Positions 5,378 to 12,713 of a stretch of 20,792 nt of DNA are shown here, piece after piece. The notes under the pieces were generated by a model. The model did no database searches. It worked only from the letters and a program-made list of their open reading frames with translations, and was not told the origin of the DNA. A program made the translations under genes and the position numbers. The first letter of the stretch is position 1; every line of letters starts with the position of its first letter. The DNA comes from a virus, in UHGV virus genome UHGV-1788846; one strand, 5' to 3'.

Positions 5378-5404
5378 AAATTTTCACAAAACAGTTTACA
5401 TACC

Positions 5405-5433
5405 ACAAGGACTGTGGTACTATATAACTATCA
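5405..5433 (+). promoter_or_regulatory. T4 early-type promoter: -35 TTTACA (5405-5410), 17-nt spacer, -10 TACTAT (5428-5433) with upstream TGg
   Basis: Promoter and leader are near-identical to the motA promoter at 9259-9287 (TTTTCACAAAACnGTTTACA…CTGTGGTAyTATA…AACTATCAACT). Confidence 0.7.
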
Positions 5434-5457
5434 ACTGATACGGATTTGGAGAATAAA

Positions 5458-5664
5458 ATGTTTACTACAGCTGAATTAAAACGAGCAAAAGCTAAGAAAG
5501 GGCAAGGAAAATATAAAGCTGAATTAGTTAAAGAACTTCAGTTTGCTGAGGCTGAATTGAATTCAATGATTATTCAAAATGCTCCAGAAACTGAAATTGC
5601 TCTTAAACGTATTGCGAATAAGTGTCTTCGTGATGCAATCGTCGATCTTTTAGCGGATTATTGA
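5458..5664 (+). CDS. Hypothetical early protein, 68 aa from ATG (the track's 72-aa version starts at a TTG)
   Basis: ATG at 5458 preceded by GGAG and by the early promoter. Confidence 0.5.
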   Translation: MFTTAELKRAKAKKGQGKYKAELVKELQFAEAELNSMIIQNAPETEIALKRIANKCLRDAIVDLLADY

Positions 5665-5669
5665 GTAAA

Positions 5670-5933
5670 ATGAAATTTAAATTTTATTACGCTAAACATA
5701 AAATAACTGATGAGTTTGTGTCAGTTGAATATTCTAGCGATGATGAAGGTATGATTTATACTCGCTTAGGGTTATCGCACTGGGAGTCTGATACGCCTTA
5801 TTTTTCAACTCCTGAAGAAATTACACGTTTAGTTAATGGTCATATGAATGACCACTGGAATGTAATTCTTTCAGATAGTCTTAAAGCGGCTATTAATAGT
5901 AATGAAATGAAAATCGCTGAGATTGAACTATGA
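5670..5933 (+). CDS. Hypothetical early protein, 87 aa from ATG (the track's 90-aa version starts at TTG 5661)
   Basis: In-frame ATG at 5670 just after the upstream stop; continuous ORF. Confidence 0.5.
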   Translation: MKFKFYYAKHKITDEFVSVEYSSDDEGMIYTRLGLSHWESDTPYFSTPEEITRLVNGHMNDHWNVILSDSLKAAINSNEMKIAEIEL

Positions 5934-6016
5934 GTTCATTATGGTGGTGTTTTGTTTGGTTAATTAGTATTCCATTGATTTGTTTAGTATTTACTTTTGT
6001 GATGAGGTTATTATGA
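5930..6016 (+). CDS. Putative micro-ORF, 28 aa, hydrophobic (MSSLWWCFVWLISIPLICLVFTFVMRLL)
   Basis: ATG overlaps the upstream stop (ATGA); single predicted transmembrane helix; below the ORF-track size cutoff. Confidence 0.3.
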   Translation: MSSLWWCFVWLISIPLICLVFTFVMRLL

Positions 6017-6111
6017 AAATTTTGAATTCTGTACTTATTGCTTGTGCGTGGTGGGTTGCACAGGTTTCAGCGGTAGTAGTTGGTATTCACATTTATTACG
6101 AATATTTTTAA
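6013..6111 (+). CDS. Putative micro-ORF, 32 aa, hydrophobic (MKILNSVLIACAWWVAQVSAVVVGIHIYYEYF)
   Basis: ATG overlaps the upstream stop (ATGA); hydrophobic core. Confidence 0.3.
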   Translation: MKILNSVLIACAWWVAQVSAVVVGIHIYYEYF

Positions 6112-6119
6112 AAAAGTTG

Positions 6120-6148
6120 TTTACAAGACTGTTCTTCCGTGGTACTAT
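6120..6148 (+). promoter_or_regulatory. T4 early-type promoter: -35 TTTACA (6120-6125), 17-nt spacer, -10 TACTAT (6143-6148) with TGg
   Basis: Same architecture as the other three early promoters; followed by the leader CTATCAACTACGGAGGAACAGAAA and an ATG at 6177. Confidence 0.65.
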
Positions 6149-6176
6149 TACCCTATCAACTACGGAGGAACAGAAA

Positions 6177-6290
6177 ATGAAAAAGATTGTTAAAGCTATA
6201 TGGAATGTAGTTATAATACTAGTAGTTTTGAGTATATTCCCAATCGTTTTAATGATTGATGTATTAAACGCTTACTTTGGATTTATGTGA
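6177..6290 (+). CDS. Small membrane peptide, 37 aa (MKKIVKAIWNVVIILVVLSIFPIVLMIDVLNAYFGFM)
   Basis: ATG with RBS GGAGGAA downstream of the promoter. The track's 82-aa ORF (6042-6290) starts at a TTG and runs across the promoter, so the short form is preferred. Confidence 0.5.
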   Translation: MKKIVKAIWNVVIILVVLSIFPIVLMIDVLNAYFGFM

Positions 6291-6297
6291 GGAAAAT

Positions 6298-6495
6298 ATG
6301 AAGCGTAAACGCAGTGCTTTTACATTTATTGAATGGTTTTTCGATAATATTTTTCCAGCTTTATTCATTTTCATGCTGATTTTCGCCTTGGGTTCAGTTG
6401 TAGTTGGAATCTATTTGATGGCAGTTGTCGGAATGGACATTCATCAAAATGGCTTAAAATCTGTAGTTGAAACAATTTGGAATGGTGTAAAATAA
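6298..6495 (+). CDS. Small membrane protein, 65 aa from ATG (the track's 72-aa version starts at TTG 6277)
   Basis: ATG preceded by GAGGAAAA; hydrophobic segment FPALFIFMLIFALGSVVVGIYLMAVVG. Confidence 0.5.
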   Translation: MKRKRSAFTFIEWFFDNIFPALFIFMLIFALGSVVVGIYLMAVVGMDIHQNGLKSVVETIWNGVK

Positions 6496-6602
6496 TGAAT
6501 TTACTAAGCATTTGGTTTTATATTCTTATGTTTTACATTGGTGCAAATTTTCCGTATTGGATGGGATGGTCAACAACTGCATTTGGATTTTATACTCCTT
6601 GA
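6495..6602 (+). CDS. Putative micro-ORF, 35 aa, hydrophobic and aromatic-rich (MNLLSIWFYILMFYIGANFPYWMGWSTTAFGFYTP)
   Basis: ATG overlaps the upstream stop (TAATG); below the ORF-track size cutoff. Confidence 0.3.
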   Translation: MNLLSIWFYILMFYIGANFPYWMGWSTTAFGFYTP

Positions 6603-6610
6603 GGTGAATT

Positions 6611-6826
6611 ATGAAAATCTTTAAAGATGTAAAAGTTGGTGAAATTTTCTGTTTAGATAATGGTGATCAGTTAATTCGTATTTCACCTCTTAAGAGCACT
6701 AGCGAGAAAATGACAGTTAATGCTACTTTAGCAAACAACAGTAATGAACGTTTCTGTATTGAAAATGATACTGAAACTTATACCGTAGAAGAGTTCTGGG
6801 AATTGAGCGTCGACTGCGACGATTAA
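6611..6826 (+). CDS. Hypothetical early protein, 71 aa, acidic
   Basis: ATG with RBS GAGGTGA. Confidence 0.5.
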   Translation: MKIFKDVKVGEIFCLDNGDQLIRISPLKSTSEKMTVNATLANNSNERFCIENDTETYTVEEFWELSVDCDD

Positions 6827-6887
6827 TTTATCGGGGCCGTGTGTATTCATGCGGCCTTGGAGTAGAAAATAATTAGAGGAAATTAAA

Positions 6888-7343
6888 ATGAAATACATGA
6901 CTGTTACTGATCTGAATAATGCAGGCGCAACTGTTATTGGTACAATCAAGGGCGGTGAATGGGTTTTTGGAACTCCGCATAAAGACATTTTGTCTAACCC
7001 TGGATTTTACTTTTTAGTGAGCAAATTTGGTGGTCCATTTGATAGTCCGTGTGTATCTGCACGATTTTATGTAGGTAATCAGCGTTCTAAGCAAGGGTTC
7101 AGTGCAGTTCTAAGTCATATTCGTCAACGCCGGTCTCAACTTGCACGTACTATTGCAAATAACAATGTTCCATACACAGTGTTTTATTTGCCTGCTTCTA
7201 AGATGAAACCTCTGACGACGGGATTTGGAAAAGGTCAGTTAGCTTTGGCGTTTACTCGTAATCATCATTCTGAGTATCAAACGCTTGAAGAAATGAACCG
7301 TATGTTGGCTGATAACTTTAAATTTGTTTTGCAGGCATATTAA
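6888..7343 (+). CDS. ndd: Nucleoid disruption protein Ndd, 151 aa
   Basis: 151 aa with RBS AGAGGAAA; lies immediately upstream of stp and ac as in T4; sequence matches my recollection of Ndd. Confidence 0.75.
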
Positions 7344-7423
7344 TGAGTAATTTCCACAACGAACACGTGATGCAGTTCTATCGTAATAATCTTAAAACTA
7401 AAGGCGTCTTCGGACGCCAGTGA
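7343..7423 (+). CDS. stp: Stp peptide, 26 aa ([26 protein letters not shown])
   Basis: ATG overlaps the ndd stop (TAATG); translation matches the 26-residue T4 Stp as I recall it; not in the ORF track because of size. Confidence 0.75.
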
Positions 7424-7430
7424 GGAAAAT

Positions 7431-7589
7431 ATGAATATCGCAAAATTATTAGGAGTTATTTCATTTATTTGTTGGATAGTAGCATGTGTTTTAACTATCT
7501 GTATCGATGCTAGCAGTGTGTTTTCACAAGCTTTAGCCCAGGGTATGTGTGCATATTTAACATTTGTGTTGTTATCTACTAATGATTAA
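7431..7589 (+). CDS. ac: Small inner-membrane protein in the ac (acriflavine sensitivity) position, 52 aa
   Basis: ATG preceded by GAGGAAAA; one hydrophobic helix (LLGVISFICWIVACVLTICI); located between stp and gene 52. Confidence 0.55.
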   Translation: MNIAKLLGVISFICWIVACVLTICIDASSVFSQALAQGMCAYLTFVLLSTND

Positions 7590-7722
7590 GAAAATCTTGG
7601 GCTATTCATTAGCCCTTGCTACTTTATTGGTAGCACTATATTATGGAGTAATGTTCGGATTAATTCAAGTCGTGCTTTTCATTTCTGATGTTATTATGGC
7701 ACTACATTCACTAGTATGGTAA
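7582..7722 (+). CDS. Putative hydrophobic micro-ORF, 46 aa (MIKKILGYSLALATLLVALYYGVMFGLIQVVLFISDVIMALHSLVW)
   Basis: ATG overlaps the 3' end of the ac-like ORF in another frame and ends 4 nt before gene 52. Confidence 0.35.
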   Translation: MIKKILGYSLALATLLVALYYGVMFGLIQVVLFISDVIMALHSLVW

Positions 7723-12056: not shown

Positions 12057-12713
12057 TTATTTAGCCCTTCCTAATATTCTGGCCGCCTGAGAACATATTG
12101 ATTCAAGGCGGTCATTACTTATATGATCATTTCTATACCAGTACATGGTTATTGTTCCAGCATAGATATTATCCAAATTGAAATATGGACAACTGTACAT
12201 GTAATTTATTTCGGGAGTAGGCTTTTTGGTTGGTAAAAAAGCAAATTTTGAGTTGGAATAATAATGACGTCCATTTAAATGAACTGTATATTCATCCATA
12301 GTTTTATCAACAGGATATCCTCCAAGTGATTTTTCACTTATTGTTGAAGGTAATTTTCCTTCGTATGCTATAATATCAACAAAATAGTTTAAGTTTTTAG
12401 GGCGGAAAGAATATACCGCACTAAAGTCTGCCTCAGATGATATATGAACTATCTGGAGTTGTTCCAGGGCGACAGATTCAAAGCGTGCATTTCTTTCCTT
12501 TTCAACAATTTCACGGTATGTTTCATACTTTGATTGCTTATAGTACTCAAAGAAACTATCTCCCCTATACCAAACAATCGCCATTATAAACAAAAGAATT
12601 ACGACAGCTACCCGGGAAGCAAGAACCTTCCCGGTAGCGTTATCTTTGAACAAGCGATCTAGAACACCAAATAGAATATCAGAGGGCGAAAATGATATTC
12701 TAGGTGCTGCCAT
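12057..12713 (-). CDS. t: Holin T, 218 aa
   Basis: 218 aa with an N-terminal transmembrane segment (VAVVILLFIMAIVWY) and a large periplasmic domain; strong RBS AAAAGGAGGG; position between asiA and gene 38. Confidence 0.9.
   Translation of the reverse strand: MAAPRISFSPSDILFGVLDRLFKDNATGKVLASRVAVVILLFIMAIVWYRGDSFFEYYKQSKYETYREIVEKERNARFESVALEQLQIVHISSEADFSAVYSFRPKNLNYFVDIIAYEGKLPSTISEKSLGGYPVDKTMDEYTVHLNGRHYYSNSKFAFLPTKKPTPEINYMYSCPYFNLDNIYAGTITMYWYRNDHISNDRLESICSQAARILGRAK

Follow-up and report, generated by a model that had tools for sequence, protein, structure and literature searches.

Conserved early genes for very small, predicted single-helix membrane proteins between denB and ndd in a T4-like phage

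Several bacterial single-helix proteins of about 30-50 aa (AcrZ, MgtS, MgrB, CydX and KdpF) bind a larger membrane protein. In phage T4, the rIIA and rIIB products counter RexAB, and Imm and Sp exclude superinfecting phages. T4 and its relatives give much of their immediate-early coding capacity to tiny proteins, which are densely packed at the ndd locus.

T4 infection raises the synthesis of phosphatidylglycerol. The 3.4-kb deletion saΔ9, which takes out 52.1, ac, stp, ndd, ndd.1-ndd.6 and denB, abolishes this stimulation, and so does rIIΔDD2, a deletion that overlaps it; the genes behind the effect were never pinned down (PMC6071114). This lost stimulation in saΔ9 is the sole mapped phenotype that covers ndd.2-ndd.6, and phages with the deletion keep about 50% of the wild-type yield (PMC6071114). 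In T4 knock-down with dCas13d, these genes were all scored as 'Not Fit' in the supplement, taken here as no fitness effect (PMC11879866), and in the supplement of a transposon sequencing study they were all scored as 'Non-essential' (bioRxiv 10.1101/2025.11.20.689424). The T4 genes are dispensable on laboratory E. coli. Their transcripts were classed as early, and the five proteins were undetected by shotgun mass spectrometry (PMC9697503 Table S2); a literature search for T4 ribosome-profiling studies found none.

Orthologues of T4 ndd.6 to ndd.2

The DNA analysed here (the window) is a stretch of 20,792 nucleotides of the virus genome UHGV-1788846. It contains a Tequatrovirus rIIA–rIIB–denB–ndd–52 region with five ORFs between denB and ndd, all on one strand (Table 1). 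At least 80% of positions 5400-7400 was covered by 426 phage records. Gene order, position between denB and ndd and the early-transcribed strand are all shared with T4, according to the alignment with NC_000866 and its annotation. As judged from these alignments, the five ORFs are the orthologues of T4 ndd.6, ndd.5, ndd.4, ndd.3 plus ndd.2a, and ndd.2 (NC_000866, T4p275 to T4p270), with amino-acid identities of 91-100% (92% for Ndd.6 and 100% for Ndd.5). They are real, conserved T4-like early genes that have long been annotated in T4, an identity that the first-pass annotation did not recognise.

Table 1. Features of the region from the promoter upstream of orf87 to the stem-loop preceding ndd (window coordinates)
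Feature	Position	Strand	Remarks
T4-type early promoter, GTTTACA-N15-GGTACTAT	5394..5423	+	exact match; T4 equivalent in X75802 at 1017-1053
87-aa soluble ORF (orf87)	5670..5933	+	phrog_2390; stop overlaps ndd.6 start (ATGA)
ndd.6 orthologue, 28 aa, one predicted TM helix, single Arg near C-terminus	5930..6016	+	phrog_8851
ndd.5 orthologue, 32 aa, one predicted TM helix	6013..6111	+	phrog_5011
T4 early promoter, -35 GTTTACA, extended -10 TGGTACTAT	6119..6148	+	X75802 promoter 1296-1332 = window 6119-6155
Shine-Dalgarno GGAGGA for ndd.4	6164..6169	+	sequence reading; kept in 25/25 copies
ndd.4 orthologue, 37 aa	6177..6290	+	phrog_3098
65-aa gene, T4 ndd.3 + ndd.2a in one frame, DUF7248	6298..6495	+	PF23906, phrog_2401
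ndd.2 orthologue, 35 aa	6495..6602	+	phrog_4135
ndd.1 orthologue, 71 aa, soluble; last coupled gene before ndd	6611..6826	+	97% identity to T4 Ndd.1; phrog_2183
GC-rich stem-loop GGCCG...CGGCC, between ndd.1 and ndd	6835..6856	+	approximately X75802 stem_loop 2009-2030

Two differences from T4 were found. The 65-aa gene is intact in the window, whereas NC_000866 shows it as two genes, ndd.2a and an out-of-frame ndd.3; the split is due to a one-base discrepancy in the T4 reference, and the RefSeq record should show one 65-aa gene. In front of ndd.6, moreover, the window contains two soluble ORFs (5446-5933) that are missing from T4: of the 87-aa ORF, only the last 8 codons are left in T4, just upstream of ndd.6 and with the ATGA overlap kept. 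Homologues of the 87-aa ORF occupy the same place in divergent loci.

Each peptide matched a PHROG profile over its whole length, as follows: 8851 (ndd.6, E 5e-16), 5011 (ndd.5, E 4e-26), 3098 (ndd.4, E 3e-21), 2401 (65-aa protein, E 3e-30) and 4135 (ndd.2, E 3e-23). The 65-aa protein is a typical member of DUF7248 (PF23906) and phrog_2401: it scored 71.9 bits (cut-off 27), with residues 6-63 aligned to positions 4-57 of the 58 in the model. Pfam gave no match for the four smallest peptides and NCBIfam nothing meaningful, the 65-aa protein and ndd.4 matched no sequence in the PDB, and no paper was found in a literature search for 'ndd.2a' and 'DUF7248'.

The five ORFs represent five families, unrelated to one another, of very small proteins with a predicted single membrane pass. 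The neighbouring Ac (7431-7589) and gp52.1 (7564-7722) are hydrophobic like the five peptides and, as does the 26-aa Stp, share their early region and size class, but have no sequence relationship to them. Paralogy among the five peptides, Ac, gp52.1 and Stp was rejected, because every pairwise E-value in an all-against-all comparison exceeded 0.05 (tiny database).

In public phage genomes, ndd.2-ndd.6 are called erratically and mislabelled. Of 18 non-T4 records, only 3 had an annotated ndd.6; for ndd.5, ndd.4 and ndd.2 the number was roughly 13-14 each. The first-pass annotation, which had expected standard gene calling to miss three of the ORFs, was thus borne out in part. The 'outer membrane' and 'periplasmic' labels on these genes in public records are predictions only.

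Reading frames, hydropathy and conservation

All five ORFs start with ATG and together cover 82% of positions 5930-6602. The best 19-residue Kyte-Doolittle means were, in 5' to 3' order, 2.57, 2.17, 3.05, 2.71 and 1.43. Because of their hydropathy (2.17-3.05), ndd.6, ndd.5, ndd.4 and the 65-aa protein have clear transmembrane segments; the helix of ndd.2, a peptide with 34% aromatic and no charged residues, is marginal by this measure. The first-pass annotation had described five ORFs with one helix each, and its coordinates were confirmed, with the fifth helix marginal. The peptides are thus predicted to be single-pass inner-membrane proteins. For ndd.4, ndd.5 and the 65-aa protein, the charge distribution would, by the positive-inside rule, place the N-terminus on the inner and the C-terminus on the outer side of the membrane.

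Chance ORFs in T-rich and AT-rich DNA, with no coding function, might be expected in a stretch with 41% T: of the 25-70 aa ATG-ORFs in the window, 32% attain a 19-residue hydropathy of at least 1.4, and none of the five proteins has been detected by proteomics. Non-detection by mass spectrometry is still a negative, though an expected one because the peptides are tiny and hydrophobic. Composition-preserving shuffles of the stretch (n=2000) gave a mean cover of 10% and a maximum of 62%; neither five such ORFs nor 82% cover was obtained in any of the 2000.

Within-genus tests were performed on 25 distinct Tequatrovirus copies. In the annotated frame, dN/dS was 0.16 for ndd.6, 0.09 for ndd.5, 0.08 for the 65-aa gene and 0.10 for the intact copies of ndd.2; such low values were confined to the annotated frames, with 0.4 to above 10 in the others, and variation was concentrated at third codon positions (variable sites at positions 1/2/3: 2/1/9 in ndd.5 and 5/4/22 in the 65-aa gene). 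Frames were intact in 24 (ndd.6), 25 (ndd.5), 25 (ndd.4) and 24 (65-aa gene) of the 25 copies. For ndd.2 the count was 19; this gene was frameshifted or deleted in the other six copies, and in at least 6 of 48 evenly sampled records, and is therefore under weak constraint in some lineages. With just 7 variable sites (ratio 2.1), dN/dS of ndd.4 is uninformative within the genus, and the gene status of ndd.4 therefore rests on cross-genus conservation.

Upstream of ndd in 31 divergent T-even loci, the ndd.4 family was found in 26, the 65-aa family in 13, ndd.6 in 11 and ndd.2 in 9. No ndd.5 homologue was found in these 31 loci; this family is restricted to Tequatrovirus. Peptide homologues are syntenic across genera where Ndd identity is only 46-66% and in phages too distant for a blastn match of their DNA. 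By these matches, four of the five families occupy the corresponding site in remote T-even relatives.

The amino-acid sequences are under purifying selection and the ORFs are genuine genes. Chance origin, to which we would in any case give next to no credence, is refuted by the conservation tests. The first-pass annotation had read the ORFs as real genes and had named a lack of frame conservation in related phages as a possible refutation; that comparison was run here, the frames are conserved, and the reading is upheld by the selection data for four genes, the cross-genus families and the shuffles.

Early promoters and coupling of the genes

Early promoters were searched on the + strand of the window with the pattern GTTTACA-N15-GGTACTAT, allowing 0-3 mismatches. 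Five matches were obtained (0.59 expected), and the copies at 5394 and 6119 were exact. The promoter at 5394 heads a unit of orf68/72, orf87, ndd.6 and ndd.5, and the promoter at 6119 a unit of ndd.4, ndd.3, ndd.2, ndd.1 and ndd. The 6119 promoter is preceded by an A-tract (6109-6116), and in the 25 relatives its hexamers are conserved and its spacer is variable. The assignment of an early promoter and ribosome-binding site to one of the ORFs is correct for ndd.4, on the evidence of the T4 consensus, the GGAGGA and the X75802 annotation. The promoter consensus and the T4 transcript classes point to early transcription in this phage. On the minus strand, one promoter-like site was found in 5930-6602 (6615-6587, overlapping the 3' edge), and overall site counts were at chance level. 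A repeat search recovered only shared ribosome-binding-site and start contexts, and Rfam gave no family anywhere in the window. Published work names this locus as a place where promoter/stem-loop (PeSL) cassettes are exchanged (PMC4122927 Fig. 6A).

In both units, neighbouring genes are joined by stop and start codons that overlap or abut, and translational coupling, like the early promoter, is supported. At three of the five starts, the ATG overlaps the stop codon of the preceding gene (ATGA at 5930-5933, ATGA at 6013-6016 and TAATG at 6493-6497). The first-pass count of four had to be lowered, because the start of the 65-aa ORF lies 7 nt past the ndd.4 stop; the TGA of that stop is within the Shine-Dalgarno of the 65-aa ORF (TGAGGAAAATATG). 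Stop/start junctions are nearly invariant among the 25 distinct relatives. This near-invariance, and the 8-codon remnant that T4 retains in front of ndd.6, would suit coupled short ORFs that deliver ribosomes to ndd.1 and ndd, or tune them, with peptides that are themselves irrelevant. Such translated leaders are very improbable here: the peptide sequences are conserved (dN/dS about 0.1; motifs shared across genera), ndd is served by a ribosome-binding site of its own (annotated in GenBank X75802), and a frameshift in ndd.2 is tolerated without loss of the downstream genes.

Putative roles of the peptides

The ndd.6-ndd.2 orthologues are, in our assessment, probably conserved early one-helix genes whose products are accessory modulators of membrane proteins or lipid synthesis. 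In the first minutes after infection, each peptide would enter the inner membrane of the host. There it would bind a larger membrane protein, of host or phage origin, or the machinery for lipid synthesis, and modulate it in the manner of a small accessory subunit. AcrZ, MgtS, MgrB, CydX and KdpF are of similar size and have a single helix, and may serve as a working analogy for the mechanism. This mode of action is our inference; searches found no partner, phenotype or structural relative.

Specificity could lie in a few conserved residues. The ndd.4 peptide has an N-terminal KK..K, then the transmembrane helix ending in an invariant Asp, and an aromatic C-terminus; D28 is the sole invariant residue of the family across divergent loci, and this helix-end Asp may be the specificity determinant. 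In the 65-aa protein, a basic N-terminus and a long transmembrane helix are followed by a conserved C-terminal helix, GLKSVVExIWNG, a tail to which the same role might be assigned. An AlphaFold2 model of this protein (mean pLDDT 80.5) has helices at 5-17, 19-51 and 53-64, the central one a predicted 33-residue helix. For the uncharged, aromatic-rich ndd.2, the candidate residues are those of the conserved G-x-N-x-P-Y-W-x-G motif.

A profile search with the 65-aa protein against 1.84 billion representatives gave 27 matches with E <=0.001, 23 of them of 25-76 aa and 4 of 820-976 aa; the matches that were inspected have one hydrophobic helix, and a word-indexed search found close relatives only. 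Long tape-measure proteins matched the profile through 5-10 repeats. The C-terminal helix GLKSVVETIWNGVK resembles one of the tandem repeats 'xIKSxIETVWNGIK' of siphovirus tape measures (PF10145-containing P0013 and P0019). Homology of the DUF7248 profile to tape measures was rejected, as the scores are sums over short repeats, none of which exceeds 15 bits. On sequence, the likeness is one of motif, between amphipathic Trp-containing helices, with no evidence of homology or shared function. Likewise, homology between the N-terminal KAIWN of ndd.4 and the C-terminal ETIWNG of the 65-aa protein was rejected (profile-profile probability 2.5%).

One or more of the peptides could be the T4 factor that reprograms host phospholipid synthesis, which we regard as an outside chance. 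In that case, a membrane-bound lipid enzyme or its regulator would be the binding partner of a conserved peptide, for instance ndd.4 or the DUF7248 protein.

Size and composition also recall the type I toxins TisB, Hok and Ldr, and many small immediate-early T4 genes are host-lethal once cloned (Kutter et al.; PMC6071114). Host-lethal membrane toxins that depolarise or permeabilise the inner membrane and aid host shut-off are nonetheless a distinctly unlikely reading of the five peptides: the conserved motifs sit beyond the helix or at its margin and the cores vary, which fits specific binding better than bulk damage, and gene loss was without measurable fitness change in the knock-down and transposon screens described in the two supplements. 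Development of T4, moreover, needs an energised membrane.

Somewhat less unlikely, and still improbable, are counter-defence or exclusion factors directed against membrane-bound abortive-infection or exclusion systems that particular hosts or prophages carry, or against superinfecting phages. The genes are early and non-essential on K-12, their content varies between genera and they undergo cassette exchange, the usual signature of host-range and defence functions, and they adjoin rII, stp and ac. However, in one conditional transposon comparison the genes did not differ significantly (adjusted p 1.0 for the rows inspected; 10.1101/2025.11.20.689424), T4 has dedicated Imm, Sp and RI/RIII functions elsewhere, and the PHROG categories of the five peptides give nothing beyond 'other/unknown'. 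Imm and Sp lie outside the window, and the PHROG matches of the five peptides are to other families.

The accessory-modulator reading, which we favour, would make these peptides condition-specific functions shuffled as promoter-flanked cassettes. The five unrelated one-helix proteins, with the nearby Ac and gp52.1, are under purifying selection yet dispensable in the laboratory. Their targets, if found, would be new handles on host membrane physiology and might answer how T4 alters host phospholipid synthesis, a question since the late 1960s. The first-pass annotation had listed the peptides as membrane-acting candidates; hydrophobic single-helix early genes were indeed found, but the roles it suggested (exclusion, lysis timing, transporter modulation and anti-defence) found no support in this analysis or in the literature consulted, and the screens gave no phenotype in the conditions tested.

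A holin or antiholin role was rejected, as the genes lie behind early promoters between denB and ndd and not in a lysis-cassette or late context. By size and map position only, the closest candidate for the T4 holin gene t in the window is a 218-aa ORF on the opposite strand (12057-12713).

Identity and setting of the five small genes

All five open reading frames (ORFs) that the first-pass annotation had read as a run of micro-ORFs for single-helix hydrophobic peptides were recovered, each with an ATG start, and correspond to T4 genes of the ndd cluster (table). The + strand of the window is the early-transcribed strand, according to the T4 annotation (NC_000866) and alignment to it, and reads rIIA, rIIB, denB.1, denB, ndd.6 to ndd.1, ndd, stp, ac, 52.1 and 52. 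When 5400-7400 was searched with megablast, 531 phage records were matched, and in 426 the match extended over at least 80% of the query; the top matches were 97% identical and nearly all belonged to T4-like phages of Escherichia, Shigella, Yersinia and Salmonella.

Each peptide matched a PHROG family from end to end, and Pfam places the 65-aa protein in DUF7248 (PF23906; 71.9 bits, cut-off 27). The ndd.2 peptide, uncharged and 34% aromatic, is marginal in hydropathy. Pairwise sequence comparison revealed no kinship among the five peptides or to the neighbours Ac, gp52.1 and Stp.

Directly 3' of ndd lie stp (26 aa) and two small hydrophobic ORFs that correspond to T4 ac (52 aa) and 52.1 (about 46 aa). 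With these two ORFs, the total of small predicted membrane proteins between rIIB and 52 comes to seven. Between denB and ndd.6 are two soluble ORFs of 68/72 aa (phrog_4535) and 87 aa (phrog_2390), both also present in other T-even genera. T4 lacks them apart from the final 8 codons (MKIAEIEL), which overlap the start of ndd.6 at an ATGA.

Features of the ndd region, with conservation in 25 close relatives and 31 divergent loci (positions are those of the window unless a record is named)
Feature	Position	Strand	Length (aa)	Best 19-residue hydropathy	Identity to T4	Intact frames	dN/dS, annotated frame	Divergent loci with family member
ndd.6 counterpart	5930-6016	+	28	2.57	92%	24/25	0.16	11/31
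ndd.5 counterpart	6013-6111	+	32	2.17	100%	25/25	0.09	0/31
ndd.4 counterpart	6177-6290	+	37	3.05	91%	25/25	2.1 (7 variable sites, uninformative)	26/31
65-aa gene (T4 ndd.3 + ndd.2a; DUF7248)	6298-6495	+	65	2.71		24/25	0.08	13/31
ndd.2 counterpart	6495-6602	+	35	1.43	94%	19/25	0.10 (intact copies only)	9/31
Early-promoter match, upstream of an ORF start	900	+
Early-promoter match, upstream of an ORF start (exact)	5394	+
Early-promoter match, upstream of an ORF start (exact)	6119-6148	+
Early-promoter match, upstream of an ORF start	9258	+
Early-promoter match, upstream of an ORF start	11723	+
Two soluble ORFs	5446-5933
stp, ac and 52.1 counterparts	7343-7722
T4 RefSeq ndd.3	4049-4129 of L001 (window equivalent 6298-6495, site 6303)
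T4 RefSeq ndd.2a	3933-4055 of L001 (window equivalent 6298-6495, site 6303)

Expression signals, chance expectation and selection

The early promoter previously proposed within the run was confirmed as an exact GTTTACA-N15-GGTACTAT; the original T4D ndd record (X75802) has its annotated promoter, -35 and -10 at the same place. The hexamers of this promoter are kept in 25 relatives, with a variable spacer. The + strand contains five matches (at most 3 mismatches) to the pattern GTTTACA-N15-GGTAcTAT, against 0.59 expected, and no shuffled sequence gave five. The other exact copy (5394) opens the unit ending in ndd.6 and ndd.5. A scan of the window detected no terminator-like site within 5930-6602.

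Four of the five starts had been described as lying on or across the upstream stop codon; this count is corrected to three (ATGA, ATGA and TAATG), because the 65-aa ORF starts 7 nt past the ndd.4 stop, a TGA inside its Shine-Dalgarno sequence. The stop/start junctions are close to invariant in the 25 relatives.

Chance ORFs were considered as an explanation: 5930-6602 is T-rich (41% T), and hydrophobic codons are therefore favoured. The observed ORF cover was 82%, against a mean of 10% and a maximum of 62% when the same bases were shuffled 2000 times; none of the shuffled sequences yielded five such ORFs. Selection was assessed in 25 distinct Tequatrovirus copies. Frames were mostly intact and dN/dS was low in four genes (0.08-0.16), which goes against the refuting outcome named in the first-pass annotation, a lack of frame conservation; in the other two frames of these informative genes, dN/dS ranged from 0.4 to above 10. 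Variable sites were concentrated at third codon positions (5/4/22 across the three positions in the 65-aa gene), and the repeated length variation at 6109-6110 falls in the A-run past the ndd.5 stop, outside any frame. Chance ORFs, and a role purely as translated leaders, can effectively be ruled out. The five are shown to be conserved, translationally linked genes that are driven by early promoters and encode tiny hydrophobic proteins.

The ndd.2 frame was shifted or partly deleted in 6/25 relatives, a sample partly picked for odd lengths, so that disrupted copies are over-represented. Among 48 full-length records taken at even steps down the match ranking, at least six carried a broken ndd.2. 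Three of the broken copies have lost 12 or 13 nt or gained 5 nt, changes that are not of the homopolymer type usual for sequencing errors; ndd.2 seems to be decaying in some lineages.

Families in distant T-even phages

Distant conservation was assessed in 36 Ndd-anchored loci from IMG/VR, 31 of them divergent (Ndd 46-66% identical), in which the ORFs upstream of ndd were subjected to iterated profile searches (counts in the table). Outside the genus, blastn picked up at most short fragments of the region's DNA, and the conservation of the families is thus at the protein level. T4 'ndd.4/.5' appears as an example of promoter/stem-loop (PeSL)-mediated cassette exchange in Fig. 6A of Comeau et al., 2014 (PMC4122927), which fits both the patchy family distribution and the two extra soluble ORFs of this phage.

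In an alignment of 14 diverse ndd.4 homologues, the sole invariant residue was an Asp (D28) that closes the transmembrane helix on its C-terminal side; an aromatic tail comes after it. The helix core of DUF7248 varies and its C-terminal GLKSVVExIWNG is almost fixed (G52, K54 and G63 invariant; L53 and W61 nearly so). The ndd.2 family retains G-x-N-x-(P/A)-Y-W-x-G, and the ndd.6 family W-C-x-I-W…I-P-x-I-C. Such a pattern, in which the helix cores vary and the motifs at the membrane edge or outside it are kept, would favour specific contacts over a bulk effect on the membrane. In one divergent T-even contig (L014, 1902-2022), the ndd.4 homologue is split into two overlapping frames by a frameshift or sequencing error.

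A 62-aa protein of Shigella phage Sf25 (P0007) joins in frame the N-terminal region of ndd.4 (~30 residues) to the C-terminal region of the 65-aa protein (~30 residues), a fusion compatible with a shared topology of the two. Its precomputed Pfam list gives PF26889 and PF23906; the newer family PF26889 probably covers ndd.4.

Against 1.84 billion representatives, the DUF7248 profile matched only 27 proteins at E ≤0.001. Small proteins (25-76 aa) made up 23 of these, with one hydrophobic helix in those inspected. The other four (P0013, P0019, P0022 and P0025; 820-976 aa) match through 5-10 tandem 'xIKSxIETVWNGIK' repeats, like the C-terminal helix of the 65-aa protein. Three of the four were scanned: P0013 and P0019 contain a PhageMin_Tail domain, typical of tape-measure proteins, and P0022 had no match. 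With each repeat scoring at most 15 bits, the likeness to DUF7248 is taken as motif resemblance only.

T4 data, possible roles and annotation

From the T4 literature, the orthologues are early-transcribed and dispensable. Table S2 of Wolfram-Schauerte et al., 2022 (PMC9697503) places the ndd.2 to ndd.6 transcripts in the early class and lists Ndd and Ndd.1 as detected proteins and those of ndd.2-ndd.6 as undetected. In the supplement of a dCas13d knock-down study (PMC11879866) all ndd genes are scored 'Not Fit', which we read as knock-down without fitness effect. In a transposon-sequencing supplement (bioRxiv 10.1101/2025.11.20.689424), all are classed as 'Non-essential', almost every TA site in them having taken an insertion, and one conditional comparison shows no significant change.

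The T4 deletion saΔ9 removes 52.1, ac, stp, ndd, ndd.1-ndd.6 and denB; it yields about half the wild-type burst (Kutter et al., 2018; PMC6071114) and abolishes the T4-induced stimulation of phospholipid synthesis, of phosphatidylglycerol above all. The overlapping deletion rIIΔDD2 likewise lacks this stimulation, and the genes behind it are an open question according to the same authors. The most interesting reading would tie the peptides to this old lipid-synthesis phenotype. Each peptide would be inserted into the inner membrane, and an N-in, C-out orientation is suggested for ndd.4 and the 65-aa protein by their basic N-termini (KK..K and KRKR, respectively). The AlphaFold2 model of the 65-aa protein (mean pLDDT 80.5) shows a helix of 33 residues with a short helix on either side. 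The peptides may then act as small subunits binding larger membrane proteins or the lipid-synthesis machinery. A counter-defence or exclusion role and membrane toxicity are less likely rivals. The first-pass interpretation as membrane-acting peptides read a real feature correctly and was reasonable in kind, with every specific unproven; the feature is already annotated and catalogued, and its status stays 'conserved small membrane proteins of unknown function'.

In T4 RefSeq, a single 65-aa gene appears as ndd.3 (26 aa) and ndd.2a (40 aa) because one base is missing just past the start codon; the 'Ndd.3' peptide of the reference is read out of frame. The base is missing in X75802, AF158101 and NC_000866 only, which do not differ over the stretch and presumably go back to one source sequence. 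A further eleven records (99.5-99.9% identity) differ from the T4 reference by an indel: ten at 99.9% (eight T4, RB55 and RB59) span 822 nt vs 821, and T4 record OL964735 (99.5%) spans 819 nt, 2 nt shorter than the reference. T4T, MT984581 and KJ477684 encode the intact 65-aa protein, annotated in T4T as a 198-nt ndd.3. The CRISPRi-ART table in the PMC11879866 supplement gives T4 ndd.3 as a PHROG singleton.

Public labels are erratic in the records of ZCEC14 (L040), ECML-363 (L052), Nami (L056) and JEP6 (L042). Mislabels include 'DnaB-like helicase' for the 65-aa gene, 'tail fibers protein' for ndd.2 and 'naphthalene 1,2-dioxygenase' for ndd.1 or ndd; in JEP6, a spurious 114-nt ORF is called across the promoter in place of ndd.4.
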